From Candidatus Nanohaloarchaea archaeon (GTDB taxonomy: Archaea > Nanohalarchaeota > Nanosalinia > Nanosalinales > Nanosalinaceae): a stretch of 64,000 nucleotides of DNA. Position numbers and translations under genes: made by a program. The notes under the pieces are model-generated. The model had not been told where the DNA came from, did not search any database, and worked only from the letters and a program-made list of their open reading frames with translations. Every line of letters begins with the position of its first letter. Position 1 is the first letter of the stretch. Positions 4,422-37,976 of this stretch are shown piece after piece. The DNA lies in contig JACOQA010000004.1 in the NCBI GenBank assembly GCA_014297435.1, positions 30,043-94,042 on the forward strand, in the 5' to 3' direction.

Positions 4422-4625
4422 ATGGGACGTGTAAGACCTACATACATCAAGAGACTTGCAAAAGACCTGGTAGAAGCCGATCCTGAAAGCTTCTCAGAGG
4501 AGTTCGAAGAGAACAAAGAAGAACTAAATGATAAAGCAGATTTCAAGTCGAAGAAGCTAAGGAACAGAGTAGCTGGGTATATTGTCAGAGTCGTGCAGAA
4601 TAGAGAAGACCCGACACCAGCATAA
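4422..4625 (+). CDS. rps17e: 30S ribosomal protein S17e
   Basis: MGRVRPTYIKRLAKDL...KKLRNRVAGYIVR matches the conserved S17e N-terminus and the RNRIAGY motif. The size (67 aa) is typical. Confidence 0.85.
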   Translation: MGRVRPTYIKRLAKDLVEADPESFSEEFEENKEELNDKADFKSKKLRNRVAGYIVRVVQNREDPTPA

Positions 4626-6954: not shown

Positions 6955-6959
6955 ATTGG

Positions 6960-20599: not shown

Positions 20600-21373
20600 A
20601 TGACATCTGAAAATGGGATGCGTGTAGGGCTTTCACTAGGTCCAGAAGGAGATCTTGTCGAAAATATTGAACTAGCAGAGGACATGGACTTTATCGAGTT
20701 TGGACTAGGTGAAGGAGAACGACTTCAGGAAGATATTGACGCTGAAGAAGTCAACGAGAAACTAGAAGAATTAGATCTTGACTTGGTTGTCCACCTTCCT
20801 TTCCGACAGGTTCTTGCGACAGCGGTACCAGAACTAAACGAATCGATACTTGAGTATCATGACAGACTTCTCGAGTTCTCAACTCAGATGGGTGCAGAGA
20901 AAGCAGTTGTCCACGTAGATACGAGAGGGAAACACGAGGAGATTGAAGAAGAACTGATCCTTGAACAGATAGAGAAACTTGACGAACTTGGAAAGGAGCA
21001 CGGAATTGAGATAGTTTTCGAGAACCTGGGTCACTGGAGAGGTATAGAACTTGAAGAGCTTGGAACTATGCTGGAAGAGCTTGAAGTCTCTATGTGTTTT
21101 GACACAGGTCACGCCTTTTCAGAGGTCGGACAGGAAGAAACAGAAGAATTCTTGGAAGAATATTCTCACCTGATTTCGCACATTCACTTTACCGATACAC
21201 GCGAGGGCAGGGACATGCACCTACCTATCGGATCTTCAGAAGTAGGCTTCGAGGGCATGATGGAAAAATTCGAGGATTTCGATGGAACAGCCTGTATGGA
21301 GATCTTTACAGATGATCCAGACTACATCCAGCTATCAAAGTGGAAGGTGAAGGATCTGTTCGAAGAAGGTTAA
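20600..21373 (+). CDS. Xylose isomerase-like TIM-barrel protein (sugar phosphate isomerase/epimerase or AP endonuclease 2 family)
   Basis: Ordered motifs VVHLPF, VVHVDT, IVFENLG, MCFDTGHA and HIHFTDT. Confidence 0.7.
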   Translation: MTSENGMRVGLSLGPEGDLVENIELAEDMDFIEFGLGEGERLQEDIDAEEVNEKLEELDLDLVVHLPFRQVLATAVPELNESILEYHDRLLEFSTQMGAEKAVVHVDTRGKHEEIEEELILEQIEKLDELGKEHGIEIVFENLGHWRGIELEELGTMLEELEVSMCFDTGHAFSEVGQEETEEFLEEYSHLISHIHFTDTREGRDMHLPIGSSEVGFEGMMEKFEDFDGTACMEIFTDDPDYIQLSKWKVKDLFEEG

Positions 21374-22662: not shown

Positions 22663-23238
22663 ATGGAAATTCTGTTTCTGTATATGAACTTTGATATTAA
22701 GGGAGTTGAACTTGATGACAACCATTACGTCATCAAACAGGCACTATACAGGAATAAATACAGGGTCGAGGATTCTTCGGGTAAAACAGTTCTGAAAACC
22801 AAGCAGAAGCTGTTAAAGATGAAAGAGGAATTTCCTTTCACTAATTCGGATGAAGATACCGTTTTCAGTATCAAAGCCAAGAACCTGATGGATATAGCAG
22901 GCGACTATGCCCTGATAGATGAGGAAACCGGAGAAACGTTCGCAACGCTCGAAAAGAAATTCACGTTCTTCAAGCACGACTGGAAGGTCAAGAATTCAGA
23001 AGGTCAGGAGATAGCAAGGATTGAAAGTGCGAGCTTCGGACTTGAAGTGATGCGTTCTTTGGTTGGATTCTTGAACCTGATACCTCAGAAATATGATATC
23101 TCAAGAGGTGAGGATAAGATAGGAAGCCTAAACGGAAGATTTAAGCTGAGAGATGTCTACGATCTGAAGTTCGATGAGAAAGTGTCTGAGCCGTTGATAG
23201 CTGCGGCAGTTGCCGTCGATGCACTGGAGCACAACTAG
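22663..23238 (+). CDS. LURP-one-related / tubby C-terminal-like (DUF567) protein
   Basis: The repetitive beta-strand pattern HYVIKQALYRNKYRVEDSSGKTVLKTKQKLLKMKEEF...WKVKNSEGQEIARIE resembles the DUF567 family. An alternative start is MNFDIKG at 22681. Confidence 0.4.
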   Translation: MEILFLYMNFDIKGVELDDNHYVIKQALYRNKYRVEDSSGKTVLKTKQKLLKMKEEFPFTNSDEDTVFSIKAKNLMDIAGDYALIDEETGETFATLEKKFTFFKHDWKVKNSEGQEIARIESASFGLEVMRSLVGFLNLIPQKYDISRGEDKIGSLNGRFKLRDVYDLKFDEKVSEPLIAAAVAVDALEHN

Positions 23239-26200
23239 AGCTCTGACTCCAGATCCTCCAGTATTTTTTCCGTCTTCGTATACCTCCCAAGCTCCATAGC
23301 TTTCTGTGCGTGCTCGACCTTCATTATAGAGTCCTTTGGAAGCTCTCCACCTTCCTGGAGATCATTCTTTATCTCTTTTGAGATCTGTTCAAGCTTCAAC
23401 TTGAGCATCTTTCTTCGATGCATCCTGAAACCCAAGTATCCTGCGCATGCGAATAAAACAAGCAAAAGGGACGCCACCACCGGTAGAACTAGTTCTCTAG
23501 GTTGTTGTTCTGGTTCTGAGATTTCTTCCTCGGTATTGTTAAGCGTTGAATCGTCTTCAGCCGGAGTGCTTTCTATCTCTTTAACTCCTATAGCGAATTC
23601 AGTTGGTGCAGACATTACTGCACTGAAGTGCGTCTTGCCTGACCTTTCCGCCATTTTATTTGAACCTATGCTCTGCCAAGGGTCTCTCCGGACGTAAACA
23701 TCGATTTTAGAACCGTTCAGGAGTTCGTTACTGACCGAGAAATTAATAATAAAACGGCTGTTCTGAAGACTAGAGTCAAGACTGTAGCTGTTAAGAATAT
23801 TGAACTCCTCTGCTTCGAACATCTGTCTTGTGATAGTCAAGTTTATCCTTTCCTCTCCCGTCCTATCTACCACCAATGAGTTTATTCCCTCCAAGCCTTC
23901 TAGATCCAATTTCTTGTCTCGTGATATGTTGATGTTCCTGAAAACTGCTTGGTCATTTTCAACCGTTCTCTCTTCCTGGATCTGATTTTCGTCTTCTTGC
24001 TGGAAAGCTGTTAGGCTTCCTGAACCACCTCCAGACGATCCCCCTCCTGAACCACCGGAGTCATCGGAAGAGTCTGTAGAGCTTTCCGTCTCTTCAGCGA
24101 CCGCGTAGGCGGAGAAGCTGGAAACGTTGGTTTTTGCGACTGTTGAGTTCACTTCGCCCGAATCAATCTCTCTCCAGTCACTATCGCATTCATCCCTTTC
24201 AAAAGACCACTCGTCGCATTTCAGGAGTTTAGGAGAGTCGGTCTCAGCGTACTTGATGGTTAGTCCTGCCTCGGAGAAGTTTAGGTCGGTGTCGGCAGCA
24301 ATTACCTCCTTGAACTCAGTGTTTTTCCTCTCTAGATTGTCTGTTGAGACGTCCTCGGACCAGTTAACTGTAGTATTAGTATCTTTAGATATTTTGACTT
24401 CTCTGAGCTCTACATTCGAGTTATTGCCTACTTCTAGATCCCATACTCCCTCAGGGATCGATTCATTAAAGGCGGAGGTATTGGAGCTTTTCAGGGTGAA
24501 GTTCCTGCCCCGGATGCTATGTTGAACCGAGTTCTTTTTCTTCCCGTTCTTGAACCTTAAAGTGAGATTAACGGGTTTTCTTACTTCGAAAGTCTCATTC
24601 AGGGTGTTCCGCTTTGAATAAGTATCGTTGACTATAACTTTAGCCGTATAGTTTCCTCTCTGTGCTGTCTTGTTGAAAAGCTCTGTTTTTCTGAAACCGG
24701 AAGGATAAGGGTTTTCACCAGGAAAACCTAGTTTCCTTGTTTCTGTGGTTGAGTTCGGATACGTGATTTTGAGCTTTACCGTGTCTGGTGTCTCCTCTTT
24801 CATCTTGTAACTAAGATTAACTGTATCATTTATCTTGTAGACATCCCTTTTGTCCAAATTGGTTATTTTAGGGGCTAAGTTCTCGATCGTAAAGAATTCT
24901 GACTTGAAACGTGTGTTGTTAAATTTGTCCGTCCCGTTAACAGTTATGTTGGTTTTCCCGGGTTTTAGATCAAGCCTCGAGTAGTAGAAGCTCGAATTTT
25001 TCGATTTTAACCCTTTGGAAGTCCCGTTTATGTATAGATCTGCCGATTTAAGATCTTCATTTGAGCTGATGTTCGCCCAGATCTTCTCTGTCGTGTACGT
25101 AGTGTTTTCGATCGTTGAAAACTTCAGGGTTGGAGCTATGCTGTCTATCTCCAGGGAGCTGTTTGAAACCGCCAGGTTACCTACATCATCCTCAACAAAG
25201 TAGGTCAGATTGTAACTTGTCTCTTTGAATTTTACGGTGTTATTGAAGTGATAAGTGTTGTTTAATGCTAGTGTGTAGTTCTTCTTACCGTCTTCCTCGG
25301 ACCGTACCTCCGCTACCGCTTCTACATGTGTGCTGTCGTTGACCGAGATGTTTATTGTACCAAACGGTTCCCTGTACTTGCCTGCCGGCTCATTCACAGT
25401 TATGTTGGGCTTTGATGTGTCGACCGTCAGTCCAACAGATTCCTTCGCTGTGTTGCCGTTAGGGTCTGTGGCGTAAACCACAAGGTTGTACCTCCCGTCC
25501 TCAAGGTCCAGTGAGGTGTTTCCGGTAATCGTCTTGTTATCTGAACCATTGTTGTACTCTACTGTTGTTTCTTGATCTACACTATATCTAAGATCGAAGC
25601 TACCTGGATAGGAACGGTTTTGAGGACTGTACAAACTAAGCTTGGGAACTGTATCGACCCTGAAGCTTCGGTTCGTCGAATTTACGTTTCCATGTTCGTC
25701 TTCAACATATAGAATTATGTCGTGGTAGCCTTCCTCGAATTCAAACGTTTTGTTCCCTGAAAGGGTTTTGTTCTCGGATCCGTTGCTGTACAGAACCTGA
25801 TTAGCATCTTTCGAGGTGTAGTTGATGGATAATTCGTCTTTCGAGTACGTACGGTCTTTAGGTTGGTGTATACGAATATCTGGCGGAACGGTATCGACAG
25901 TAAAGTTTATAGAAGACGAGTTCCAGCCTCCTGAACTGTGCTTGGCGTAGAAAGTCGCGTTATGGAACCCCTCGCTTAAGCCATCTCTTTTATCGTAAAA
26001 GTGAGTCTCTGTATCATTCTGCATGGAGATATTTGAACCATAATCAACTGCGTAGAGAGTCTTCTCGATCTTCATATCGGTCGAAATGTTGAAGTAAGCT
26101 GAATTGTCCGTATAAGTTGTGTTGTTCGGAGATTCTATCGTTATATTCGGATATCTGAGCCTCTCTTTTTCGAGTAGCAACGTGTAGTCCTGCTGCCCTA

Positions 26201-28013
26201 TCTCCGGCACACTTGACCCCTTTACTTCTACGGTCAAATCTCCGCTTTCAGGTATATAGACCTTTTCCACGTTGTTCAGATCGTCTGACTTGTTTCTCCA
26301 AGGCTCCTTTGTAGCACGTGAAGAGTTGAGTGTCCAAGGATAGAACCTCTGACCCATCGAGTTCTTTACAATGAGATCAAGATTGTTCACTAAATTAAAA
26401 CCTGAGGAGGATTCGGCTGCGGGGTCGGACCACACAAGTGTTAAGTTAGCCGAGCCCTCTACGTCAAGGCTGTAACTATCTTTTTCGCCTGTTAAGACCG
26501 ATCCCCTCTTTATCAGGTCTCCTTTGTCTGCACGAAGGTAATCTATAGATCTTGAGACATTCAGTAATCCCCAGCCAGTTTTGTAGCTGGGTCCAGCCGA
26601 GTTGAGATCAGTTGCTGTATGTATCATCAATCCTTTTAGCTCCGAAGGTGTAGCGTTCCTGCCTTTCAACTCTCTGAACTCCTGCTGTAGAAGTAGTATA
26701 GCTCCTGATACAGCGGGTGATGACATCGAAGTTCCTTGTTTAGCGGCGTATGAGTTGCCAGGAACAGTGGAAGTAACAACCTCTCCTTTTGCCATGAGAT
26801 CGGGTTTTATCCTTCCGTCATCCGTAGGACCGTAAGATGAAAAGCTTGATCTCTTGCCTGAACCATCAAGCGAACCTACTACGATAGTGTTTTTTGCCGT
26901 AGCTCCAGGTCCCGTCAGTGTACTGCCATCGCCACTACATTCACCTAGATTTCCGGCTGAGAAGACCACTGGTATACGCTCCACGCTTGTTTCTCCGGCA
27001 ACTACATCATCATAACCAGCACTTCTTTGGGTATAAGCTCCAAGGATATCTTTTTCATCTGAACAACCTATATCGAATCCCCATGAGTTTTGTGATACTT
27101 CCGCATCGTAATTACTAACTGCATCCTTGTGCTCATTAACTAGTTCAGAGTAGTCAGCAGGCCATTCATAACTAGCAAGTGTTGCATTAGGCGCGATACC
27201 ACGATAAAGAGGATTCTTTTTTCCTGCGCCAAGCACGGTTCCGGCAACATGCGTGGCGTGATCACTAACCGAACAAGCAGACTCTGTGCAGCCTGAGTCC
27301 CCTCTAACAGTTTTTCCGGAGTAGTTTAGGTCAACGTGTTGTGCTGCCCAGCCACCATCCCATACTGCACCCCTTACACCTGATCCGTTGAGTTCAGTAT
27401 CCCAGCTTTTCAGCCTGTCTACCTCGATCATGTCCCGGGAACCATCATTCATAACTTTAAGAGGTGGTGGAGGCGGGCTTATCCACTTTACTGGTCCCTT
27501 AGCGAATTCTGACGGTTCTTTTTCTGTCCTAACCTTCCAGCTCTTTTTTCCTCTTGAAACAAGTTCGCCGGTTCTTTCAACAAATTCCTCTTTCTCTTCC
27601 TGACCTGTATTGTTGAAGAACTCAATTAGGAAAGTATTTTTCTCAGTATTAGAGCTCAAGTTTCTGTCTTTAATACTGGGAGAAATCCTGTCCTCTGGAT
27701 TAATATCCAGCACATTAACCTTTGGATTGGTCTCAAGCCTTTCCACAGCGGAGGACGTAAGATCAGCGTAGTAAGCGTTTTTTGGTATGTACCCCATCAG
27801 CTCAACGCCTTTAATTTTACCGTTTGAACGATTAGGAATATCATCGAACTCTAGGATGTGATATCCGGGTTCAGTTTGGGTTCCAAAAGCACTGATCGAA
27901 GGTTTTTCAGGTTCAACAGCACCTGATTTCAGGTTTACCTTTCCGGCTGAAGTCGACACCAGCAATAATATCAGAAGTATAAGTCCTAGAAGCCTCCATG
28001 AACCATCAGCCAT
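23235..28013 (-). CDS. Giant membrane-anchored subtilisin-like (S8) serine protease with tandem Ig-like domains
   Basis: Signal peptide. Catalytic triad motifs VWDGGW (Asp), DHATHVAGT (His) and GTSMSSPAVSGA (Ser). About five ~80-aa repeats (VDTVPP.../VDTVPK.../VDTSKP.../IDSIAP...). Ser/Gly linker SSDDSGGSGGGSSGGGSGS. TM segment LVLPVVASLLLVLFACAGYLGF followed by a ~65-aa tail. Confidence 0.85.
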   Translation of the reverse strand: MADGSWRLLGLILLILLLVSTSAGKVNLKSGAVEPEKPSISAFGTQTEPGYHILEFDDIPNRSNGKIKGVELMGYIPKNAYYADLTSSAVERLETNPKVNVLDINPEDRISPSIKDRNLSSNTEKNTFLIEFFNNTGQEEKEEFVERTGELVSRGKKSWKVRTEKEPSEFAKGPVKWISPPPPPLKVMNDGSRDMIEVDRLKSWDTELNGSGVRGAVWDGGWAAQHVDLNYSGKTVRGDSGCTESACSVSDHATHVAGTVLGAGKKNPLYRGIAPNATLASYEWPADYSELVNEHKDAVSNYDAEVSQNSWGFDIGCSDEKDILGAYTQRSAGYDDVVAGETSVERIPVVFSAGNLGECSGDGSTLTGPGATAKNTIVVGSLDGSGKRSSFSSYGPTDDGRIKPDLMAKGEVVTSTVPGNSYAAKQGTSMSSPAVSGAILLLQQEFRELKGRNATPSELKGLMIHTATDLNSAGPSYKTGWGLLNVSRSIDYLRADKGDLIKRGSVLTGEKDSYSLDVEGSANLTLVWSDPAAESSSGFNLVNNLDLIVKNSMGQRFYPWTLNSSRATKEPWRNKSDDLNNVEKVYIPESGDLTVEVKGSSVPEIGQQDYTLLLEKERLRYPNITIESPNNTTYTDNSAYFNISTDMKIEKTLYAVDYGSNISMQNDTETHFYDKRDGLSEGFHNATFYAKHSSGGWNSSSINFTVDTVPPDIRIHQPKDRTYSKDELSINYTSKDANQVLYSNGSENKTLSGNKTFEFEEGYHDIILYVEDEHGNVNSTNRSFRVDTVPKLSLYSPQNRSYPGSFDLRYSVDQETTVEYNNGSDNKTITGNTSLDLEDGRYNLVVYATDPNGNTAKESVGLTVDTSKPNITVNEPAGKYREPFGTINISVNDSTHVEAVAEVRSEEDGKKNYTLALNNTYHFNNTVKFKETSYNLTYFVEDDVGNLAVSNSSLEIDSIAPTLKFSTIENTTYTTEKIWANISSNEDLKSADLYINGTSKGLKSKNSSFYYSRLDLKPGKTNITVNGTDKFNNTRFKSEFFTIENLAPKITNLDKRDVYKINDTVNLSYKMKEETPDTVKLKITYPNSTTETRKLGFPGENPYPSGFRKTELFNKTAQRGNYTAKVIVNDTYSKRNTLNETFEVRKPVNLTLRFKNGKKKNSVQHSIRGRNFTLKSSNTSAFNESIPEGVWDLEVGNNSNVELREVKISKDTNTTVNWSEDVSTDNLERKNTEFKEVIAADTDLNFSEAGLTIKYAETDSPKLLKCDEWSFERDECDSDWREIDSGEVNSTVAKTNVSSFSAYAVAEETESSTDSSDDSGGSGGGSSGGGSGSLTAFQQEDENQIQEERTVENDQAVFRNINISRDKKLDLEGLEGINSLVVDRTGEERINLTITRQMFEAEEFNILNSYSLDSSLQNSRFIINFSVSNELLNGSKIDVYVRRDPWQSIGSNKMAERSGKTHFSAVMSAPTEFAIGVKEIESTPAEDDSTLNNTEEEISEPEQQPRELVLPVVASLLLVLFACAGYLGFRMHRRKMLKLKLEQISKEIKNDLQEGGELPKDSIMKVEHAQKAMELGRYTKTEKILEDLESEL

Positions 28014-28738: not shown

Positions 28739-30172
28739 TCATAGATCTGAGAGAAGTCCTTCAAAGAACTGAATAATTTTTTGAAGTAAACCGGTTTTTC
28801 TCTTGACTTCCTGTGTTCTGTTTGGAAGACTTAATTTCTGGATCTCTAAATTGCTGGATGATCCTTCAGGCTTTGCTGTATAAACAGGATAATCAAAGTC
28901 GTTAACTTTTTCAAGACATTTTTCGAATTTCTCCCTCTCATTGTAATTACAGGGCTTCATGTCCATCCTTTTACTGAAAAACTCCCACTTCTCCTCAGGG
29001 CTCTTAACCTTTGAATCGAAATCCATGCCCTCATAAAGTTCGTATATCGAACCGTTATCCCTAACATAATTTCTCATAACGAGTTCTGAGTAAGCGTATC
29101 CGAAATCTCTGTAATCAGCAAAATTATGGGGGTTCCAGTTCTTCATGAAGCTCATATTTTGGTCGTAGTACTGCCAAAGTGTTTCCCTTGAGCCTTTCGA
29201 CTCTAAGGAATAGATAACATTTTTCCCCTCTATCTCGGATCTATACTCCTCCTTCTCCCCGAATAGGGATCTGGGACCGATATCTATCCTTCCCGAATTG
29301 TAGAGTTTTTTCCTCATCAAAAACTCCGCATACTCGGAAGTTCCCTCCTCAAAGTAAGATGACTTTGTTCCATCCCATTTTAGCTTCCTGTCGTTCAAAC
29401 CGTGTACCACTTCATGCGACAGAACCGGTAGAGAACTTTCACCTAGATTTTTCCTAAGCCGGATGCTTCCTGAAACATATTCTCCTGCACTCCACCTGTT
29501 TACTGTTCTGTTGTACTTTTCACTGGGTAGAGTGGCAGCCGGAAATCTTTCGAAGCCTTGAACCTGTCCAATAGTTCCTACTGCTACAGTATAAGCTTCG
29601 TCCGCGTTTTCGGGCAGAGAGCCGAAGAAGTTGAAATAGTCGGTAACGTTCCCCTTCCCGAAGTTAAGCCTGATATTGGTAGGTCCTTCTCCTCTGAACT
29701 GCATTTTCGAGCCTTTGTACGATGATAAAAATCCGTAATCGATCCAACCCGAGATAAAGTCTACAACTTTTACAGTTCCAGTGGTTTTCTCTCCTTTGAA
29801 GCTTGGAAGTGAAAGTTCTCGTCTGTGCCAGTCCTCATGGATTTTTTCTGCCTCCTCATTAATCTTCATCCTAATTTGCAGGGTTTCGGAATTCCTAGGT
29901 CTTCCTTTGTTTGTGGATACAATCACCGAATCGTTGGATAAAGTATAACTATCTATTCTACCCAAAGAGTCGTTAATACCAATTATTTCAGCGTTTTCAG
30001 GTATTTTCCAGTCCAGCCTCCAGTTTGATACAGGACATTCTTCCTGACAGTCAAGTTTGACTGTTGTGTTCATCAAAATCTTCTCTCTGTCCGCTTCAAT
30101 ACTGTACTGGACTTCGGCAGCGGATGAAGCAATGAAAATTATGAGTAGAACAAGAACGATTTTTTTCCTCAT
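28739..30172 (-). CDS. Secreted zinc metalloprotease (gluzincin, HExxH+E)
   Basis: HEVVHGLND followed 18-19 residues later by FEEGTSEY. The start is taken at MRKKIVLVLLIIFIASSAA (signal peptide), not at the upstream ATG 30244. Confidence 0.6.
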   Translation of the reverse strand: MRKKIVLVLLIIFIASSAAEVQYSIEADREKILMNTTVKLDCQEECPVSNWRLDWKIPENAEIIGINDSLGRIDSYTLSNDSVIVSTNKGRPRNSETLQIRMKINEEAEKIHEDWHRRELSLPSFKGEKTTGTVKVVDFISGWIDYGFLSSYKGSKMQFRGEGPTNIRLNFGKGNVTDYFNFFGSLPENADEAYTVAVGTIGQVQGFERFPAATLPSEKYNRTVNRWSAGEYVSGSIRLRKNLGESSLPVLSHEVVHGLNDRKLKWDGTKSSYFEEGTSEYAEFLMRKKLYNSGRIDIGPRSLFGEKEEYRSEIEGKNVIYSLESKGSRETLWQYYDQNMSFMKNWNPHNFADYRDFGYAYSELVMRNYVRDNGSIYELYEGMDFDSKVKSPEEKWEFFSKRMDMKPCNYNEREKFEKCLEKVNDFDYPVYTAKPEGSSSNLEIQKLSLPNRTQEVKRKTGLLQKIIQFFEGLLSDL

Positions 30173-30195
30173 ACCCAAGGATTGGCTTGTAGCAA

Positions 30196-30202
30196 ATAAA
30201 AG
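30196..30202 (+). promoter_or_regulatory. TATA-like box ATAAAAG, 29 nt before the dcd ATG
   Basis: It sits in the 52-bp divergent intergenic region between 30172 (minus strand) and 30225 (plus strand). Confidence 0.35.
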
Positions 30203-30224
30203 AACATATGACCAAGAATGTAGT

Positions 30225-30812
30225 ATGGCTATACTCTCGGACAAGGAGATTAGAAGGATCGTAAGGGAGAAAAACGCGGTAGAAGCGAAGAAAGGTCCTG
30301 AAATAGATCTTGATCTTCAGGTTGGACCGGCCTCGATGGATTTCAGATTGGGATACGAATTCGGCGTGATGAACACACGAAAGTTAGATATTATAGATAC
30401 TAAGAACATGGAGAAGTACCAGAAATACATAGAGAAAGAGAAACATACTGCTGAGGACGGTATTGTTATACATCCTGGCGAGTTCATCCTTGGTTCAACA
30501 ATCGAGAAGATAAACCTGCCTGATAACATGGTTGCTAGAGTTGAAGGTAGATCCAGTTATGGAAGACTGGGAATAATCGTTCACTCGACGGCAGGATTTG
30601 TTGATCCAGGTTTTGAGGGGGATGTAACTCTGGAGATCCAGAACCTTGGAAACGCACCCGTGAGAATGTATCCTGAAGACCGTGTATGCCAGGTAGCGTT
30701 CGAGACCATGGAAGGTGAGGTAGAGAGTCCTTACGGAGAGAAGAAAGACGTTAAATATATGGGACAGACCGGCGCAACCGGATCTAAACTAGACAGGGAG
30801 AAGAGGGAATGA
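30225..30812 (+). CDS. dcd: dCTP deaminase (dUTPase-fold)
   Basis: MAILSDKEIRR..., VEGRSSYGRLGIIVHSTAGFVDPGFEGDVTLEIQN. The start is taken at the internal ATG 30225; the ORF-track extension from 30057 is antisense to the protease gene. Confidence 0.88.
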   Translation: MAILSDKEIRRIVREKNAVEAKKGPEIDLDLQVGPASMDFRLGYEFGVMNTRKLDIIDTKNMEKYQKYIEKEKHTAEDGIVIHPGEFILGSTIEKINLPDNMVARVEGRSSYGRLGIIVHSTAGFVDPGFEGDVTLEIQNLGNAPVRMYPEDRVCQVAFETMEGEVESPYGEKKDVKYMGQTGATGSKLDREKRE

Positions 30813-31558
30813 AACCTGTAGACTGCCACTGCCATTTAGACTTCGAACAGTACAAAGATGATCGAGAGAAAGTAGTTGAGAGAGCCAGAGACAATCTGGA
30901 GTTCGTCATTAACGCAGGAAGCAACTTGAAACATAACGGCAAGGCTCTCGAGCTACAGGCGAAATATGAAGGTTTTGTTTACGCTAATCTCGGACTACAT
31001 CCTACTTATACCGAAGATTTTGACCAACTTGAGGAAATTAAAAAAAAGATACGGGATGAAGACCCTATAGCCATCGGCGAGATTGGTCTAGATCATCACC
31101 ATGTAGAAGATGACGCAATTCGGGAGAGACAGGAAGAGGTTTTCCGCGGAATGCTTCAACTAGCCGAAGAGCTTGAGAAACCAATTGTCGTACATACAAG
31201 AGATGCGGAGAAGAAATCAGTTGAGATTATAGAAGAATATGATATAGAGAACGTTATGCTACACTGTTTTAACGGCAAACCTGATTTAGCGAAGAGAGCA
31301 GCAAAAAATGGCTGGAAAATAGGTGTGACCACCCAGGTTCTCTATTCTGCAAGAGTTCAGAATATTGTTGAGAAGTTAAGCCTAGAATCTATTTTGCTGG
31401 AGACTGATTCGCCCTTCCTTTATCGCGGTGAGAGAAACGAACCTGCAAACGTAAAGGAATCTGTAGAAAAGATTTCTGAGATCAAAGACCTCGAAGAGAC
31501 AGAGGTTCACGAGAGAACTACTTCCAGCGCCAAAAAGTTCTTCGGCTTGGAAGGTTGA
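30809..31558 (+). CDS. TatD-family metal-dependent hydrolase/DNase
   Basis: DCHCHLDF (HxH), GEIGLDHHH, VVHTRDA, MLHCFNG and ETDSPF. ATGA overlap with dcd. Confidence 0.85.
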   Translation: MKPVDCHCHLDFEQYKDDREKVVERARDNLEFVINAGSNLKHNGKALELQAKYEGFVYANLGLHPTYTEDFDQLEEIKKKIRDEDPIAIGEIGLDHHHVEDDAIRERQEEVFRGMLQLAEELEKPIVVHTRDAEKKSVEIIEEYDIENVMLHCFNGKPDLAKRAAKNGWKIGVTTQVLYSARVQNIVEKLSLESILLETDSPFLYRGERNEPANVKESVEKISEIKDLEETEVHERTTSSAKKFFGLEG

Positions 31559-31576
31559 AGGGTTGAAGCGTATTTC

Positions 31577-31583
31577 TTTATAT
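31577..31583 (+). promoter_or_regulatory. TATA-like box TTTATAT, 28 nt before the ATG at 31605
   Basis: Spacing identical to other genes in this window. Confidence 0.35.
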
Positions 31584-31604
31584 GTTGGGCATTAAGTATC
31601 CAAT

Positions 31605-32069
31605 ATGGTACTCGAAAAGTTCAAGGACAAGGTTTCTACGGAGCCTAATGTTGCGGTTTACGTTGACGGACCGAACGTGATCAGGAAACAGTTCGATTTA
31701 GACCTGGATGCTTTGAGAGAGAAGGTTGAAGACTTTGGAAACATAAAAGTTGGAAAAGTCTTCCTCAATCAATACGCCTCCGAAAAACTAATTGAGGCAA
31801 TAGTATCACAGGGCTTTGAACCAGCTCTAGGTCTTGGAGGAGAAAAAGATAAAGAAAGCGATGTCGACGTCTATATGGCGGTAAATGCGATGGAATCCGT
31901 GTTCTCGGATGATATTGACGTAGTTGTTATCGTTACAAGAGACGCTGACTTCCTTCCGGTTGTTCAGAAAGCAAAAGAACATGGTAAAGAAACTGTAGTT
32001 ATAGGAATGGAGCCAGGCTTTTCCACAGCACTTCAGAACGCAGCGGACGAAGTAATCGAACTAGACTAA
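31605..32069 (+). CDS. NYN-domain (LabA-like) predicted RNase
   Basis: VAVYVDGPNV, DVDVYMAV and VVIVTRDADFLPVVQKAKEHGKETVVIG match the NYN/LabA acidic motifs. Confidence 0.7.
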   Translation: MVLEKFKDKVSTEPNVAVYVDGPNVIRKQFDLDLDALREKVEDFGNIKVGKVFLNQYASEKLIEAIVSQGFEPALGLGGEKDKESDVDVYMAVNAMESVFSDDIDVVVIVTRDADFLPVVQKAKEHGKETVVIGMEPGFSTALQNAADEVIELD

Positions 32070-32400: not shown

Positions 32401-32925
32401 TTATCTTCTGCCCTGAAGGTTCTGATTAATTCTCTTGAGGAGCTCAATAATCTGTTCGTTCTGCGACTTGAGTTCTTCAAAATCCCCTCTCTGATTGGCT
32501 ACCGATTCATTCGAGGGCTGCAGTTCGTTTCTGCCTCTCTGACCCTGTCTTCCAAGATCCTGCTGATTTCCCTGACCTTGGTGTCTTTGCTGTCTCTGGT
32601 TCTGATTCTGGTTGTTTAAACCTGCGTTCTCCATTTTTCTCTTCGTCTGGCTACTAAGCTGAGGTGAGCTAGAGCCTGGATCAGGTCTTCCAGCTTGGGC
32701 GTTCGGATGCTGACTGTTCTGAGATCTCTGGTTCCGGGAAGGGTTCGGATTCTGGTTTCTCTGACTCTTCTGGTTGTTGTTCATATTGTTTCCAGGCGGG
32801 GGATTGTTCTGTCCCTGATTATTATTTCCTAGATCCGGTTCGTCCAGCGAGCTGTCTAGATCTGCCGAGTCAAATCTGGAATCCTCATCGTTAGAGCCCG
32901 GCTTTAAGTCATCGAATACGCCCAT
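32401..32925 (-). CDS. Q/N/R-rich low-complexity (prion-like composition) protein with a C-terminal short helix
   Basis: NNNQGQNNPPPGNNMNNNQKSQRNQNPNPSRNQRSQNSQ...NNQNQNQRQQRHQGQGNQQ. The start is taken at MGVFDD; the ORF-track start at 33048 would overlap the divergent gene. Confidence 0.5.
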   Translation of the reverse strand: MGVFDDLKPGSNDEDSRFDSADLDSSLDEPDLGNNNQGQNNPPPGNNMNNNQKSQRNQNPNPSRNQRSQNSQHPNAQAGRPDPGSSSPQLSSQTKRKMENAGLNNQNQNQRQQRHQGQGNQQDLGRQGQRGRNELQPSNESVANQRGDFEELKSQNEQIIELLKRINQNLQGRR

Positions 32926-32967: not shown

Positions 32968-32975
32968 TTTAAGTA
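32968..32975 (+). promoter_or_regulatory. TATA-like box TTTAAGTA, 30 nt before the GTG at 32998
   Basis: It supports the GTG at 32998 as a leaderless start for the 545-aa orphan. Confidence 0.3.
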
Positions 32976-32997: not shown

Positions 32998-34635
32998 GTG
33001 AGCCACGGTCACGACTACTCTGATACTGAACACTGCGAGTTCGGTCACACCTTCGTAGACGAAGACGGTCCCAAGTACCCCCGAGAGGTAGAAGGTGAAG
33101 AAATCTACAGCTTAAGCGACTTAGAGGAAGCTACTGATGACACATTTCTGAAACCTATAATGGGCGATCAGTGGAAAAAGATGAAAGTCAAAGGCTCACA
33201 GGGAGACGGCTTCGGAGCAATACTAGAATCAATCGACACATTTGACACTGATAAGGACTGGGAGGTTTCAATGGTAGCCGAAGAACTTTTTGTATCGCCT
33301 CAAAGCGAACTGCATGGAAGCTACATGCAGCAGAGACAGCAGGCAGAACAAAGAGTAAAGGAAACGATGAGAAGTCTTTCCGAACAGATAAAACAGAAAC
33401 ATATGCTAGAACACGATATTAGGAAGCTTAGATCAAGAGCTGAAGCGATGGAAGATCAGGATGACGCAGTTCTTAAAGGTGATTTCGTCGAGTTGGTCGA
33501 TTCTGCTGGAGGCGGACAAGGTGCTGCACCTGGCTCACTTGACTTCCTTAGAAACAACAATATCTACCCTACAATCGTCTCAGACTTCAATGAAATGGAT
33601 TCTGTAGAGGATCTGGAAGACGATGGAGTTTTAGGAGACCTTCCAGAGAATGAGAAAGCCATACTAAAGAAAAAATTCAAAATGTACGAGAAGTGGAAAG
33701 ATCTTTACGGCTCCGAGGTACAGAGAAAACTGAGAGAGCTTAAGGGCGAACTAAGAAGCACTGAAAGATCGATCAGTGAGACAAAAAACTGGTTAGAACC
33801 TTACATCAAGGACATGGTCACGATCAACGACATGACAGCCGGCGATACAGACCAAACGAAGGGAATGAACCCTCAGTACATTTCGAGAGGCTACTCGTCC
33901 ATGGAGCGCCACATGACCTATATTGCTTATCAGCCTGTGAAGCCTGAGAACGGCAACTTGGTAGAGGCAGAGGATGAGGATCATGCCACGCATTTCAAGG
34001 TAATCTACCTCCATGGCGTACTGGTAAATATAGGTAATCCTTCAGAGCCGAGACAGGTCGGGAGTGAGACCGGTGTAATGATGTGGCATCCGGCAATCGT
34101 CTGCAGACACGTCTTCGAGAGAATATTCGAGCCCAAGATTGAGGAGGCTGACAAAAAGGTCGAAACCTTAATGGAAGAGTACACCGGAGAGTTTTCACCT
34201 ACGGATACCGATCTTAAAGCTGCTAGAAACGCTGAAGACTTAGCTATAAGAGATCTCAGAAAGAAAGTAGGCGAAAAACTCAGAGAAAAGGGAGAACTCG
34301 ATGAAAACCAGCAAGTTCCTTTAGAGTTCTCAGCGACAATCAGGAGGATAGAAGACGGCTTCGAAAGCGTCGAAAGTATTGCTGAAGATGACAGCTACGG
34401 AGAACCTTATCTTGAAGCTTTAGAGGAAGTTCTCGGGACTACCTTCACAGGTAATGGTGATGGGGATGACTGGGAAGAACCAACTAAATTTCAGAAAAAG
34501 ATTAAGAGGTTTATTGGAAGTACAGATGATTTCGATATAAATTCTGACGCACAGTATGGAGAATATTCTTTCGAACTAATCACAGACTACTATATCGATT
34601 TGAAAAAAGGTCTAGGACTTTACACGATGAAATGA
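32998..34635 (+). CDS. Large orphan protein (545 aa) with His/Cys-containing N-terminus and central coiled-coil-like region
   Basis: Long acidic ORF. N-terminus is HGHDYSDTEHCEFGH. Heptad-like stretch QQRQQAEQRVKETMRSLSEQIKQKHMLEHDIRKLRSRAEAME. Its stop overlaps the next start (ATGA at 34632..34635). Confidence 0.6.
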   Translation: MSHGHDYSDTEHCEFGHTFVDEDGPKYPREVEGEEIYSLSDLEEATDDTFLKPIMGDQWKKMKVKGSQGDGFGAILESIDTFDTDKDWEVSMVAEELFVSPQSELHGSYMQQRQQAEQRVKETMRSLSEQIKQKHMLEHDIRKLRSRAEAMEDQDDAVLKGDFVELVDSAGGGQGAAPGSLDFLRNNNIYPTIVSDFNEMDSVEDLEDDGVLGDLPENEKAILKKKFKMYEKWKDLYGSEVQRKLRELKGELRSTERSISETKNWLEPYIKDMVTINDMTAGDTDQTKGMNPQYISRGYSSMERHMTYIAYQPVKPENGNLVEAEDEDHATHFKVIYLHGVLVNIGNPSEPRQVGSETGVMMWHPAIVCRHVFERIFEPKIEEADKKVETLMEEYTGEFSPTDTDLKAARNAEDLAIRDLRKKVGEKLREKGELDENQQVPLEFSATIRRIEDGFESVESIAEDDSYGEPYLEALEEVLGTTFTGNGDGDDWEEPTKFQKKIKRFIGSTDDFDINSDAQYGEYSFELITDYYIDLKKGLGLYTMK

Positions 34636-37334
34636 GCGAGAACTTTATACTTCAACGGTTGAGAGAGAAGTTCAGCCCTGATGAAGAAGCTGGCACAGAG
34701 GACTTAACTGCTCTGAATTACAAGGTAGGCAATACTTCCGGAATGGACGTTACACCTGAAATACCTTCAGAATTGGCTGAAAGAGTCGGTCAAATGGCGC
34801 AGAGAGCCGGAGGAGAGATGGAGATACAGATAGGCAACCCTTCAACTTTCTATATAGACAGGGAAGATCTCTACCACACAGTCGAAGGTCTCGGTATAGA
34901 TTTCTCAATCCACAGCGATCCAAACGTTGGCTATGCTTCGCCTTACCAAGTTGGCGAGGGAGGAGGTTTTGACGGAACCTTCAACTACTTCACGCAGTAC
35001 CTGCAAGCATTTGCTTCGTTCAAACTGGAGGCAGAAAGCAGATCAGATCTTAAAATAGGCAAAGAGGACGGTATAAAAATTGGAAGAATAAATCCTCACG
35101 TCTCAGTAAGCCCTCTACCTCAAACAGAACAGGAAAGAGCCCAAGGAGTAGCTCTTGACCCCTTAGGATATAGCCTATCAAAGCTTCAGGAGAATGAAAT
35201 GGAGAATAGAAGGGACGCAGGGAAGAATATTTGGGATAACGAGAATTTCCTTCGCAAATTCTACAGACTTTTCATAGTTGATGAGCTGGAAGACAACGAA
35301 TACCAACTCTTCGACAGATTCTACATTCCCTATTCAAACAAGATTGACAAAGTCTGGAGAGAAAAACAGAATGAAACACTAAATAGAATCTACGAGAATA
35401 GATCCGGAGAGTTTTCGGGAGATAAGCTGGGGGACAAGATTAAGATTATACGTGTCGCTGGTCAAGCTGACCCTGCGATCGCCAACACCTGGCTTGATAT
35501 ATTGGAAGAGGCAGAGGATTTTGGAGATTCTGTGGAATTCGAAATTCCAACACGTCGAGACAGACCAAATAAAGAAATCGAAGTAAACAGTTTAGTGAAA
35601 CTTGATGAATTGATTAAAAATCTCAACCCTAATTATGGCATCTCTGAACTCAGAAGACTTCCAGAAGTTTACTACTATCTTAAAAAAGAGAAGCTGGAAG
35701 GAATTTCGCGCGGTACAACCGAAAACGAATTTGATGAGGACAAAAAGGAAAGACTTTGGGAACTTCTTCAAGAGCCTTTAGAAAACGCAATTGATGACCT
35801 TTGGAATCTCAAACCCGATGATGTCCAAGAAGAGGTTAAAGAGGGAGATCCAAGGGTTTCACTTGTACCTATTAACGCAAAAATTCAAGCCGTTTCAAAC
35901 CATCTTGAGATACCTAATAGAAAGATACTGGAGAAGACTTTCTCTAACCACGCCCGCTATAAGGATAATAGTAAGACTGGTATACGGCAACATATTGAAA
36001 ACATGTATGCCGGCGAGAAAGGGTATTTTGAGAATGGAGATGATAGAACTCCTTCCAAGCGACACGAAAACTTTCTCCGAGCGGTAGCAGACCAGTTTGA
36101 ACAGCAGATGTGGCAGGAATCAAACGTTTTTTACAGGGTAGGACCGGCATGGGTTTCTTCATCGGAGGAAACAGTCGAAGGAGAAGAAGGCATATATCAT
36201 CAAGGTTGGAGGGCTCCTAAGTTTCTATGGAAATACTTGGTTGAGAGAAAACATGACAAAGCGCATGGAGGAGACTACGATCTTGATTTAACCGATCCAA
36301 GAAAAGATAATGGATACTTTGAAGCCCTAAACGACAGAGAGTTTCAGATGGATGTTGCTGCGGCTGTAGCAGGAACCTATATGTGGTCTATGTTTACGCA
36401 GGTTGAAGCTGACTTCGACATGGAGGGTACTTCTCACTTCAAAGGCAAGAGTAAGAAGGAGTCTTGGATTGACTGGATGAACAGGTTTGGTATTGGGATA
36501 AACATGGAGACTATGGCAGGTCAGCCTAGACAGTACTTCAAGCTCTGGCGTCCTGTACACGTGGTAGCCGCCTGTAGAGCAATCAACATAACTGCGAGAA
36601 GCAGATTGGAAGAGGGAGATGACTTGGGCGGTAAAAATCATATGGCTTCTGAACTAGACGACTGTCCTGTAAAGTTCACTATCGACATGGAGCACGTCTC
36701 AAGCTTCGGTGTAGATCCAATAAAGGAGATGGAGATCTGGAAAGACAGAGAGAAAGAACTACTAGAAAATCCTGTCGAAGTTGATGGCGAAGCAATTGAA
36801 GTTCCTGGAGATTCGAATCGACCTTTAGCCAAGATGTTGAGGATGTACCACTTGACAAAACCCGGTCACGAAACCAGTGGCGGTGTAGGACACACTCACG
36901 GTCCTTTCAGAAAAGGCGACAAGGAATTGTACACATGGCTTCATAAGATGGTTAAATGGGGTTTCACAAGAACGGGAGAGTCGGGCGAGAGAGCTTCAGT
37001 TATGTATGAGGTAGGAGGGGAGCAGGTCGGAACGGTATACCAGGCTAAGCTAGCTATGGATCTTATCGAACTAGGTGTTTCACCTGATGAGCTTGATCCT
37101 TCAGTGGTTGATCCAGGAAGCGAATATAAGAGCGAAAAAGAAGCTCTTATTGCCCGTTTCTTCGATATGGATCGTACAACTTATTCGAAGGAGTGGGCGA
37201 AGATTGAGCAACATGCATTCGATCCTCTAGATGGTCTGCTAGAAGCTGAAACGTTTGACGTTACTTTCTCGGGAAGCGCCGCTCTTGAAAATAACAATAG
37301 AATTAACGAGTTTCTCCCAGAAGAATATCAGTAA
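34632..37334 (+). CDS. Large orphan protein (900 aa) with an Endo IV / xylose isomerase-like TIM-barrel ligand series interrupted by a ~450-aa insertion
   Basis: The ordered motifs are IHSDP (His94), NPHVSV (His156), INMETMAGQ (Glu626), IDMEHV (Asp685/His688), MYHLTKPGHETSGGVGHTHGP and MYEVGG. Confidence 0.6.
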   Translation: MSENFILQRLREKFSPDEEAGTEDLTALNYKVGNTSGMDVTPEIPSELAERVGQMAQRAGGEMEIQIGNPSTFYIDREDLYHTVEGLGIDFSIHSDPNVGYASPYQVGEGGGFDGTFNYFTQYLQAFASFKLEAESRSDLKIGKEDGIKIGRINPHVSVSPLPQTEQERAQGVALDPLGYSLSKLQENEMENRRDAGKNIWDNENFLRKFYRLFIVDELEDNEYQLFDRFYIPYSNKIDKVWREKQNETLNRIYENRSGEFSGDKLGDKIKIIRVAGQADPAIANTWLDILEEAEDFGDSVEFEIPTRRDRPNKEIEVNSLVKLDELIKNLNPNYGISELRRLPEVYYYLKKEKLEGISRGTTENEFDEDKKERLWELLQEPLENAIDDLWNLKPDDVQEEVKEGDPRVSLVPINAKIQAVSNHLEIPNRKILEKTFSNHARYKDNSKTGIRQHIENMYAGEKGYFENGDDRTPSKRHENFLRAVADQFEQQMWQESNVFYRVGPAWVSSSEETVEGEEGIYHQGWRAPKFLWKYLVERKHDKAHGGDYDLDLTDPRKDNGYFEALNDREFQMDVAAAVAGTYMWSMFTQVEADFDMEGTSHFKGKSKKESWIDWMNRFGIGINMETMAGQPRQYFKLWRPVHVVAACRAINITARSRLEEGDDLGGKNHMASELDDCPVKFTIDMEHVSSFGVDPIKEMEIWKDREKELLENPVEVDGEAIEVPGDSNRPLAKMLRMYHLTKPGHETSGGVGHTHGPFRKGDKELYTWLHKMVKWGFTRTGESGERASVMYEVGGEQVGTVYQAKLAMDLIELGVSPDELDPSVVDPGSEYKSEKEALIARFFDMDRTTYSKEWAKIEQHAFDPLDGLLEAETFDVTFSGSAALENNNRINEFLPEEYQ

Positions 37335-37343
37335 CGTATTAAT

Positions 37344-37976
37344 TTAGAATATACTCTTAATCTTTTCTAGACCGTATCTCAAAGGCTCTAATCTCCTTTT
37401 AATCATCTCTTTATATCTCATTTTGCTCGAATCTCTTCCAATCTCATCAGTTTCGGGTCCGAGTGTTTCGTGTTTCTCGACATCAAGTGCTTTGCTTCCT
37501 ATCCAGTCGCTTCTCTTCTTGCAGTAGTCGCTTGCAACAGTTTGAACAGTACTATCTTTATGCGTATTTTCAGCTATTCTCTCGTAGTCGTCCCAGAAGG
37601 AATCTAACTCAATATTGTAGTTTTCAACTTCAAATCCGAGGTCTTCTAACCCATAACCTTTCTCTTCCTCCATTCTTTTAGAGATGTCTTCTTCTACCAC
37701 CAATGTTGGATCCCATTCTTCGTAGACCTCATCTATCGCACTTATGTGATCTTCGAAGAAGTTGTACCTGATTTGATCCTCTTCTTCGCTTGGGGAAGGA
37801 TGTAGTGCAACTACGTCAGGGGCTTCTTTGTCTTCGAGAAATTCCTCGTAAAGTTCCTCGTATTCTTCTTTATCAGTATCAGTTACATCTTTCTTAGGGT
37901 GTGGTGTTCCCAGTGCTTGACCTAGGTCGCTCCACGAAAACTCGAACTCTTTTTCTACCACAAAGTAACAATTCAA
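37344..37976 (-). CDS. Hypothetical acidic protein
   Basis: 210-aa D/E-rich ORF. The listed start is TTG at 37976; the GTG at 37961 is an alternative. Confidence 0.45.
   Translation of the reverse strand: MNCYFVVEKEFEFSWSDLGQALGTPHPKKDVTDTDKEEYEELYEEFLEDKEAPDVVALHPSPSEEEDQIRYNFFEDHISAIDEVYEEWDPTLVVEEDISKRMEEEKGYGLEDLGFEVENYNIELDSFWDDYERIAENTHKDSTVQTVASDYCKKRSDWIGSKALDVEKHETLGPETDEIGRDSSKMRYKEMIKRRLEPLRYGLEKIKSIF

Follow-up and report, generated by a model that had tools for sequence, protein, structure and literature searches.

Barrel enzymes of the PF01261 superfamily, which includes endonuclease IV (Endo IV), sugar isomerases, epimerases and the phosphodiesterase CbiR, bind one to three metals (PMC7733943). 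Here we describe a gene trio from a 64-kb window, the whole stretch of 64,000 nucleotides that was analysed, on contig JACOQA010000004.1 of Candidatus Nanohaloarchaea archaeon. The middle gene encodes a protein of 900 amino acids (aa) which, from transitive homology and the conservation of its predicted metal ligands, we assign to this superfamily. The two halves of its predicted barrel are separated by a giant insertion. A gene for a 545-aa protein, called the partner below, lies upstream, and a gene for a nucleotidyltransferase (NTase) lies downstream. We conclude that the split barrel defines a new family, of unusual architecture, within a known superfamily, and that it belongs to an undescribed conserved three-gene unit; the searchable literature yielded no paper on the family, its insertion or the trio. 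In the tiny genomes of DPANN archaea much of the conserved gene set is still annotated as "hypothetical", and the trio offers a testable handle on this part of their gene content.

The three-metal site of Endo IV of E. coli (Nfo) is formed by H69, H109, E145, D179, H182, H216, D229, H231 and E261. Ketose epimerases have an E-D-H-E site with one metal, and the sugar isomerases hold two metals. These enzymes are not known to have the two N-terminal histidines or the HxH pair, both of which are Endo IV-type features. The PROSITE patterns for AP_NUCLEASE_F2, to which Nfo belongs, are H-x2-Y-[LIVMF]-[IM]-N, [GR]-x-C-x-D-T-C-H and H-x-N-[DE]-...-D-x-H.

The 900-codon open reading frame (ORF) of the split-barrel gene was present on the forward strand, and its motif blocks and their residue and nucleotide coordinates were as given in the original prediction, which had been made from the sequence alone. 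The protein had no Pfam match even at E <= 1, and none was obtained in NCBIfam, PHROG, PADLOC or PDB sequences. In this sense the word "orphan" used in that prediction is correct, but taxonomically it is not, because at least 29 full-length Nanohaloarchaeal homologue clusters (823-916 aa, 41-63% identity to the 900-aa protein) and many relatives in Aenigmatarchaeota exist. The few source-named clusters among the 29 are all labelled Nanohaloarchaea, and the database protein identical to the 900-aa protein bears the name Nanohaloarchaea archaeon. Using a profile of the Nanohaloarchaeal homologues (A1) in a HMMER search of 1.84 billion representative proteins, we found two further tiers: an intermediate one of 650-850 aa, for example in Nanohaloarchaeota archaeon QJJ-7, and a remote one of 500-740 aa from Aenigmatarchaeota (E = 1e-12 to 1e-4). 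When A1 was compared by hhalign with an alignment of the more distant relatives of the barrel protein (A2), the probability was 100% (E = 7.7e-74), both termini were aligned and the middle was left unaligned.

The link to PF01261 was made through these relatives. In a sample of 35 (27 remote and 8 intermediate), 15 matched PF01261, the best with E = 8.9e-17, and several exceeded the cutoff of 31.1 bits, P0074 with 41.3 bits. The Pfam comparison suggested in the original prediction was thus negative for the window protein itself and positive for nearly half of the sampled relatives. The match is in two pieces around the insertion: the first ~140 residues are covered by profile positions ~21-89, as on the N-terminal half-barrel of P0068, and the last ~150 residues before the tail by positions ~111-248. 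Some Aenigmatarchaeota members are automatically named "sugar phosphate isomerase/epimerase family protein", and for these the databases already imply the link to the superfamily, while the named Nanohaloarchaeal members are annotated as "hypothetical protein".

Solved structures were reached with a profile of one remote subgroup (A5). It matched MJ1311 (3wqo, E = 4.3e-5) over the C-terminal half, Endo IV (T. maritima 2x7v; 4hno; E = 0.0075) over the N-terminal half, and D-tagatose 3-epimerase (E = 0.028) and the AP endonuclease of African swine fever virus (ASFV, E = 0.054) over the C-terminal half. In the alignments the two N-terminal His strands lie on HSGYLINL and NIHP of T. maritima Endo IV, and the Glu, DxxH, His and xH motifs lie on the corresponding residues of MJ1311. 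With the remote-tier profile the N-terminal half-barrel aligns to Endo IV residues 49-110; the C-terminal half-barrel aligns to MJ1311 residues 143-253, besides the PF01261 positions 111-248. The profile A1 gave only noise against PDB (LINE-1 ORF1 coiled coil, PEPCK). Neither A1 (E = 0.13) nor A5 (E = 0.25) aligned significantly by hhalign to the single 257-aa barrel encoded elsewhere in the window; the same sub-significant stretches align the first His strand and E, DxxH, H, xH in register.

An AlphaFold2 (AF2) model built from A1 had a predicted TM-score (pTM) of 0.79 and a mean predicted local distance difference test score (pLDDT) of 77.7. It contains eight ordered strand-helix units, with strands at residues ~30-39, 62-67, 90-98, 150-157, 623-627, 680-685, 736-741 and 788-793. 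The compact, high-probability Foldseek matches of the model were ASFV AP endonuclease 6khy (0.97) and L-ribulose 3-epimerase (0.93); psicose 3-epimerase, L-rhamnose isomerase and MbnB (MbnBC 7tcw, probability 0.33) were matched as well. In the viral library the matches were a Tunisvirus "endonuclease family 2" protein (0.90) and the AP endonucleases of pithovirus and ASFV. The compact top matches came consistently from the PF01261 superfamily, with E-values of just 0.09-1; such weak values are expected because the barrel is one third of the 900-residue query. Our assignment of the fold therefore depends chiefly on the chain of sequence profiles, and the structure searches agree with it. The proposal of an Endo IV / xylose isomerase-like barrel agrees with the remote homologues that exceed the PF01261 gathering score, with the MJ1311 and Endo IV profile matches, and with the whole-protein model, for which superfamily members come first among the compact matches. 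Taken alone, the fold together with the metal site is very probable.

The blocks FSIHSDP, INPHVSV, GINMETMAGQ, FTIDMEHV, MYHLTKPGHETSGGVGHTHGP and VMYEVGG were present as quoted in the original prediction. In an alignment of 132 sequences (29 Nanohaloarchaeal, 8 intermediate and 95 Aenigmatarchaeota-type, among the last the ORFs translated from 80 GTDB genomes), with a mean identity to the window protein of ~0.19, only 17 of 900 positions were at least 95% conserved: G37, H94, H156, G179, W533, E626, D685, E687, H688, H740, P744, H756, Y767, G777, E793, G795 and H861. Eight of these 17 are predicted ligands (H94, H156, E626, D685, H688, H740, H756 and E793), and these eight together with E687 are kept in 128-132 of the 132 sequences. 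The original prediction had set conservation among orthologues as a test of its ligand series, and the series is invariant or nearly so across two phyla. Chance can be excluded as its source, because all five residues that had been named explicitly are within the conserved 2% of positions. H740, H756 and E793, which are there too, belong to the last two of the quoted blocks. The comparison of GINMETMAGQ with the ENTAGQ block of Nfo did not hold up: the remote-tier consensus is IENPDA or FExP, and the likeness beyond the Glu is probably coincidental.

In order and type the set reads H, H, E, DxxH, H, HxH, E on strands 3 to 8 (numbering of the AF2 model). When it was mapped with the Nfo numbering given above and the T. 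maritima alignment, all nine Endo IV-site positions were filled by residue types that bind metals, with H754 in the place of D229. The 900-aa protein is thus predicted to retain a full Endo IV-type multinuclear metal site. This conservation also bears on the idea that the protein is a non-catalytic structural or scaffold protein with a relic barrel. Its very large size, the helix-rich and coiled-coil-like insertion, the coiled-coil partner and the lack of a known activity would suit such a role, yet relic sites decay, and here the ligands are the most conserved positions across two phyla. We regard a relic barrel as extremely improbable.

The same residues can be read for a sugar or sugar-phosphate isomerase, epimerase or dehydratase, in which the insertion and partner modulate only oligomerisation or regulation. 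This is the commonest chemistry of PF01261 and agrees with the automatic name of some Aenigmatarchaeota members; D-tagatose, psicose and L-ribulose 3-epimerases and L-rhamnose isomerase are among the profile and fold matches, and E626, D685, H740 and E793 include the epimerase E-D-H-E set. However, five more metal-type residues are conserved (H94, H156, H688, H754 and H756), and none of the split-family proteins tested matched the curated sugar-enzyme models of NCBIfam. Next to the barrel gene, moreover, genes for a coiled-coil orphan and an NTase of the Pol-beta type are conserved and none for a sugar kinase, transporter or pathway, and DPANN lineages of minimal metabolism keep the barrel gene as part of their core. 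A sugar enzyme is therefore unlikely, in our judgement.

A plain orthologue of Endo IV, that is, an ordinary AP endonuclease of base excision repair with an incidental insertion, would explain why the ligand series corresponds one-to-one with the Endo IV sites and why AP endonucleases of the Endo IV family head the compact fold matches. The role might also be vacant in this genome, the 257-aa window protein being MJ1311/CbiR-like and not a clear nfo product. On the other side, the nfo models TIGR00587, NF002196 and NF002198 were not matched by the window protein, P0074, P0067, P0097 or P0048, though even the 257-aa paralogue scores 6.7e-8 with nfo. The PROSITE patterns given above are not met by HSDPNVGY, KFTIDMEH or YHLTKPG...GHTHGP of the 900-aa protein, and a dedicated partner and NTase are foreign to known Endo IV biology. 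We consider a plain Endo IV rather improbable, somewhat more so than the sugar enzyme.

The 257-aa protein (20600..21373, +) had been cited in the original prediction as a conventional family member, and it is indeed a PF01261 member (E = 4e-25) whose motifs are visible in the alignment. It cannot be counted as a canonical Endo IV. Among solved structures it has a single relative, MJ1311 (E = 1.6e-9), the NCBIfam model that fits it best is CbiR (NF041277, E = 1.7e-24, 86.7 bits, under the 105-bit cutoff), and against nfo it reaches 32 bits (E = 6.7e-8) where the cutoff is 129.65 bits. To find an enzyme resembling CbiR here is surprising, as the organism probably makes no cobamides.

The mostly helical insertion separates strand 4 from strand 5, at the place where the two predicted half-barrels meet, and has helices at high pLDDT in parts of the AF2 model. 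Between the second His and the Glu (H156-E626) this protein has a spacing of 470 residues, compared with ~36 residues for the matching pair in E. coli Nfo. The median spacing is 457 (422-503) in Nanohaloarchaea and 280 (222-365) in Aenigmatarchaeota. Since a long spacing is found in both phyla, the insertion is ancestral to the whole family, with ~280 aa in the common ancestor of Nanohaloarchaeota and Aenigmatarchaeota, and was enlarged by ~180 residues, to ~460 aa, in Nanohaloarchaea. The original prediction of ~450 residues splitting the ligand strands was accordingly right for this protein, whose insertion is an enlarged form of an older one. The core of the insertion, ~residues 240-480 (nt 35349-36071), is hypervariable, both in its sequence and in its length, and the mean identity over residues 161-480 is 0.10. 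The flanks, residues 161-240 and 481-600, are conserved family-wide, with VDPxG (G179), ESNxFY..PAW, W533 and AAxxxW (W585)..FTQ. No Pfam family or solved structure was matched by the insertion, and an origin as a duplicate of the partner or of the C-terminal region of the NTase was rejected because it is similar to neither. Two half-barrels that stand 280-470 residues apart with every ligand kept bear on ideas about the modularity of half-barrels.

Behind the barrel there is a family-specific C-terminal extension. H861 (nt 37212-37214) in its HAFDPL motif is kept in 126 of 132 sequences. The acidic tail ends in ...EEY[RKQ] (e.g. ...LPEEYQ) and is kept even in the remote tier (PEEWKKEELR). The AF2 model is of low confidence from residue 864 on.

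Some unusual members of the family were also checked. Candidates for separate half-barrel proteins in some lineages (P0063, P0066, P0041 and P0044) turned out to be contig-end fragments or truncated calls. P0096, a 617-aa protein of Aenigmatarchaeota, carries an N-terminal glutaredoxin-fold domain without cysteines, which makes its NCBI name "glutaredoxin" misleading, and has Asp in place of the ligand equivalent to H740. This fusion was rejected as a functional clue, the domain being Cys-less and the protein an outlier.

The partner ORF has 545 codons and runs on the forward strand from GTG at 32998 to TGA at 34633-34635. Direct reading showed that ...ACG ATG AAA TGA closes it at 34635 and that the ATG of the barrel gene stands at 34632, which reproduces the ATGA overlap (34632..34635) of the original prediction. 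Homologues of the partner form 177 clusters, and all the source-named ones are Nanohaloarchaeal. They conserve the N-terminus MSHG..DTCxFGHxF of the 545-aa reading, so the GTG start is right and a later ATG start was rejected. A TTTAAG at 32968..32973, ~27 nt 5' of this GTG, has the spacing that would be expected, on a reading of the sequence, of an archaeal TATA box before a leaderless mRNA.

The partner had no match in Pfam, NCBIfam, PHROG, PADLOC or PDB. In its AF2 model, residues ~104-152 and ~217-275 each form a very long helical hairpin and residues 300-369 a sheet of four strands; the Foldseek matches of this model to TolC-type channels and SMC arms were low-probability coiled-coil look-alikes and were dismissed as meaningless. 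A phage or defence annotation was ruled out for both the 900-aa and the 545-aa protein by the negative PHROG and PADLOC searches, which have no bearing on the fold.

The gene upstream of the barrel is homologous to the partner in the intermediate lineage (L008; hhalign 100%) and in a deep-branching lineage (L007; hhalign 97.7%, E = 2e-12). Aenigmatarchaeota-type loci were retrieved with a tighter alignment (A4) and their ORFs were translated from 80 GTDB genomes. A hidden Markov model of the partner found the ORF directly upstream of the barrel on the same strand in 69 of these 80 loci, with a median gap of 4 nt between stop-to-stop ORFs.

A co-encoded partner beside a multi-metal barrel recalls MbnB, and the protein could be an oxidase like those of MbnB/DUF692, with multinuclear non-haem iron, that depends on its partner and acts on a peptide or protein substrate. 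MbnB has the barrel type predicted here and an Endo IV-like multi-metal set, it is an obligate heterodimer with the partner encoded next door, and MbnBC was among the fold matches. But there was no PF05114/DUF692 match in the window protein or the 35 relatives scanned, the partner is unlike anything solved, MbnC included, and no precursor-peptide gene was evident. The core distribution, which includes many anaerobic Aenigmatarchaeota, is also contrary to an O2-dependent chemistry. Such an oxidase is improbable, to a degree well beyond the sugar enzyme and the plain Endo IV.

The downstream NTase has an N-terminal domain of the Pol-beta type, close to kanamycin nucleotidyltransferase (KNTase) and the minimal nucleotidyltransferases (MNT), and a helical C-terminal region. 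Its GS...DID..DD motif is intact and is invariant among Nanohaloarchaea. Identity is 69-80% among Nanohaloarchaea and 33% to the orthologue of the deep-branching lineage L007 (E = 3e-57). The closest solved relatives are KNTase, which is the best, and minimal NTases, and only ~50 residues of the catalytic N-terminal part are covered. A role as CCA-adding enzyme was rejected, as neither the tRNA_NucTransf2 and cca models nor the many solved archaeal CCA enzymes were matched. The NTase is encoded downstream of the barrel in seven of the eight Nanohaloarchaeal, intermediate and other loci (L001-L008), the exception being the Aenigmatarchaeota locus L006. It is likewise downstream in 43 of the 80 Aenigmatarchaeota-type loci, in 40 with the canonical orientation, and many of the remaining loci are incomplete. 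In 13 of the 80 it occurs as two tandem paralogues of ~290 aa and ~400 aa (e.g. L011 5801..6685 and 6634..7812, +), which suggests a heteromeric NTase.

The conserved core of the locus is therefore the partner, the split barrel and the NTase, in this order, because the remaining neighbours, such as TrmB regulators and cytidylate kinases, are not conserved across the family. The original prediction had seen one functional unit in the barrel gene and its upstream neighbour. The upstream link persists in the distant loci, and the survey of phyla and neighbourhoods proposed there shows the unit conserved in Nanohaloarchaeota and Aenigmatarchaeota, but as a trio with the NTase and not as a pair. 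That the pair could not be assigned to any described system is consistent with the unmatched models of characterised families and with the literature.

Two candidates for a fourth component were rejected. The first, a ~170-aa divergent gene, is conserved in Aenigmatarchaeota and absent from the Nanohaloarchaeal loci and the window. In 58 Aenigmatarchaeota-type loci (L009-L088, ~1.4-2.2 kb in, -) it stands 5' of the partner gene and points away from it, with the consensus MPVFARTKL...YVGPNP...RTEYPQDTxWQRSLFYEM...FWHR and no Pfam match, and occurs as two tandem copies in L007 (4913..5931, -). The second is a convergent gene between the barrel gene and the NTase (37344..37976, -), for which the position is kept and the sequence is not. 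In the window it is a small acidic ORF of 210 aa with a TTG start, the start codon being uncertain. Other Nanohaloarchaea have a gene of 178-268 aa at this position with marginal similarity; one pair with the window ORF gave 22% identity (E = 0.002) and another gave no similarity.

The distribution of the trio is housekeeping-like in two DPANN phyla, and the trio family showed no link to phage or defence models. In the window the surrounding genes are housekeeping genes (aminoacyl-tRNA synthetases, eRF1, V-type ATPase), so the region is core chromosome and no island. The keeping together of ~1,860 codons across two phyla among such genes implies an important function that is missed by current annotation.

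For this function we tentatively favour, at a little less than an even chance, an Endo IV-type multinuclear metallo-phosphodiesterase that works with a scaffold partner and the NTase. The 900-aa protein would be a catalytically competent barrel enzyme which holds two or three metal ions and, by analogy with Endo IV and CbiR, hydrolyses a phosphodiester in a nucleic acid or a nucleotide-linked substrate. It would form a complex with the translationally coupled 545-aa partner, a putative scaffold or substrate adaptor docking on the insertion, on the conserved C-terminal tail or on both, and insertion, tail and partner together might form a substrate-binding or gating apparatus. The NTase might supply or consume a nucleotide-linked species on which the barrel enzyme acts, and the two enzymes could run a cycle of adding and removing nucleotides, such as end-healing or reversible nucleotidylylation. 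The number and kind of the metals, the phosphodiesterase chemistry, the physical complex and the substrate are what this explanation would add to the homology chain, assigned fold class, ligand conservation, insertion position and age, and conserved trio. Weak hints for a nucleic-acid or nucleotide-linked role come from the basic partner and NTase (isoelectric points, pI, of 8.8 and 9.2 in non-halophiles) and from genes of DNA and RNA metabolism near the trio. These are the dCTP deaminase, TatD and NYN genes in the window, and topoisomerase with PCNA, DNA ligase, NYN and NurA in other loci.

Several points weigh against the phosphodiesterase explanation. For the window protein, direct searches of Pfam, NCBIfam and PDB gave no match, the best Foldseek E-value is 0.09 with none below 0.05, and no nfo, UvdE or CbiR family model was matched by any member tested. 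Ketose epimerases are also among the matches, so that the chemistry cannot be read from homology alone, and for MJ1311, the nearest solved relative, we know of no established function. The barrel protein itself is near-neutral in non-halophiles (pI 6.4), which gives no support for DNA binding. NTases of the KNTase/MNT type usually modify small molecules or proteins and not nucleic-acid ends. The AF2 model of the partner is of low-to-moderate confidence (pTM 0.50), the partner is not adjacent in some loci, e.g. L006, and gene adjacency is no proof of a physical complex.

A bolder form of the phosphodiesterase explanation would make partner, split barrel and NTase a lineage-specific three-protein machine, essential in Nanohaloarchaeota and Aenigmatarchaeota, with a three-metal phosphodiesterase gated by the partner and the insertion. 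We hold this to be doubtful, though slightly less so than the sugar enzyme. If true, it would mean a reversible nucleotide-transfer or nucleic-acid end-healing cycle without described counterpart, and possibly the replacement of a repair or RNA-processing function lost from the reduced genomes. As the metal ligands are pinpointed, the prediction of a metal-dependent phosphodiesterase that requires its partner is directly testable, and Nanohaloarchaea can be grown in co-culture.

Table 1. Features of the trio in the window (positions are those of the 64-kb stretch; counts refer to the 132-sequence alignment)
Feature	Position	Strand	Remark
Partner gene, 545 aa	32998..34635	+	GTG start; from ORF, overlap reading and homologues
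Split-barrel gene, 900 aa	34632..37334	+	predicted AP-endonuclease-2 / xylose-isomerase-like TIM barrel with giant insertion
N-terminal half-barrel	34704..35111	+	~residues 25-160; ligands H94, H156; AF2 and profile alignments
Insertion	35112..36431	+	~residues 161-600; between strands 4 and 5; mostly helical
C-terminal half-barrel	36432..37031	+	~residues 601-800; the last four of the eight strands
C-terminal extension	37032..37334	+	family-specific; HAFDPL motif and acidic tail
Linked NTase gene, 416 aa	38026..39276	+	PF01909 match
Predicted ligand H94	34911-34913	+	FSIHSDP block; 131/132
Predicted ligand H156	35097-35099	+	INPHVSV block; 132/132
Predicted ligand E626	36507-36509	+	GINMETMAGQ block
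Predicted ligand D685	36684-36686	+	FTIDMEHV block
E687	36690-36692	+	DxEH motif
Predicted ligand H688	36693-36695	+	FTIDMEHV block
Predicted ligand H740	36849-36851	+	C-terminal half-barrel
H754	36891-36893	+	113/132
Predicted ligand H756	36897-36899	+	C-terminal half-barrel
Predicted ligand E793	37008-37010	+	C-terminal half-barrel

The DNA of the window has 41-49% G+C, and the encoded proteins are very acidic. Just 5' of the trio, genes for a dCTP deaminase, a TatD-family DNase and an NYN-domain RNase stand in a row (30057..32069, +), and an NYN gene is near the trio also in locus L008. Divergent from the partner, 32401..32925 (-) encodes a 174-aa protein made nearly all of Q/N/S/P/G low-complexity sequence; its N-terminus, MGV[FL]D, is conserved, and a short coiled coil (..EQIIELLKRINQNL) lies at its C-terminal end. 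This design recurs in the QJJ-7 lineage (L008 5686..6339, -), and in other Nanohaloarchaea the position is held by a transmembrane and coiled-coil protein. Farther away, a 1592-aa protein with subtilase S8 and Big_13 Ig-like domains (23235..28013, -) and a tandem pair of ~800-aa proteins that carry VWA and CARDB domains (4585..9365, -) are probably large surface or secreted proteins, of a type common in Nanohaloarchaea.

Compared with the known systems, membership failed for every characterised family tested, that is, nfo, CbiR, the sugar enzymes and DUF692. MbnB-MbnC would share with the split family a barrel of the same superfamily, a multi-metal site and, in that it works only with a co-encoded partner, a possible mode of action; it differs in its DUF692 profile, its unrelated partner, its peptide substrate gene and in lacking the housekeeping-like phyletic pattern of the trio. 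Ketose 3-epimerases and sugar isomerases have the barrel type predicted here, align weakly to the C-terminal half and have the E-D-H-E subset in common, but the sugar enzymes of the superfamily sit in sugar-utilisation operons and the split family does not. Closer is the branch of MJ1311 and CbiR, in which MJ1311 is the remote tier's best solved match; its E, DxxH, H and xH align, and its ligand set is the same. CbiR, within that part of the superfamily, is a phosphodiesterase whose substrate is not DNA (PMC7733943). Both proteins are compact (~250-290 aa) and have no insertion or partner, while the split family did not match the CbiR model NF041277 and has no cobamide genes nearby. Endo IV (Nfo, AP endonuclease family 2; e.g. 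T. maritima 2x7v and ASFV pE296R, 6khy) has the ligand order H, H, E, DxxH, H, [D/H]xH, E in common with the split family, and its (beta/alpha)8 barrel is the fold predicted for the latter. The 900-aa protein is three times larger than Endo IV, and its family has an insertion of 280-470 aa between strands 4 and 5, HxH for DxH on the strand-7 loop and an extra invariant Glu (DxEH). It also has its own C-terminal HAFDPL...EEYR extension and, next to the barrel gene, the genes for the partner and the NTase.

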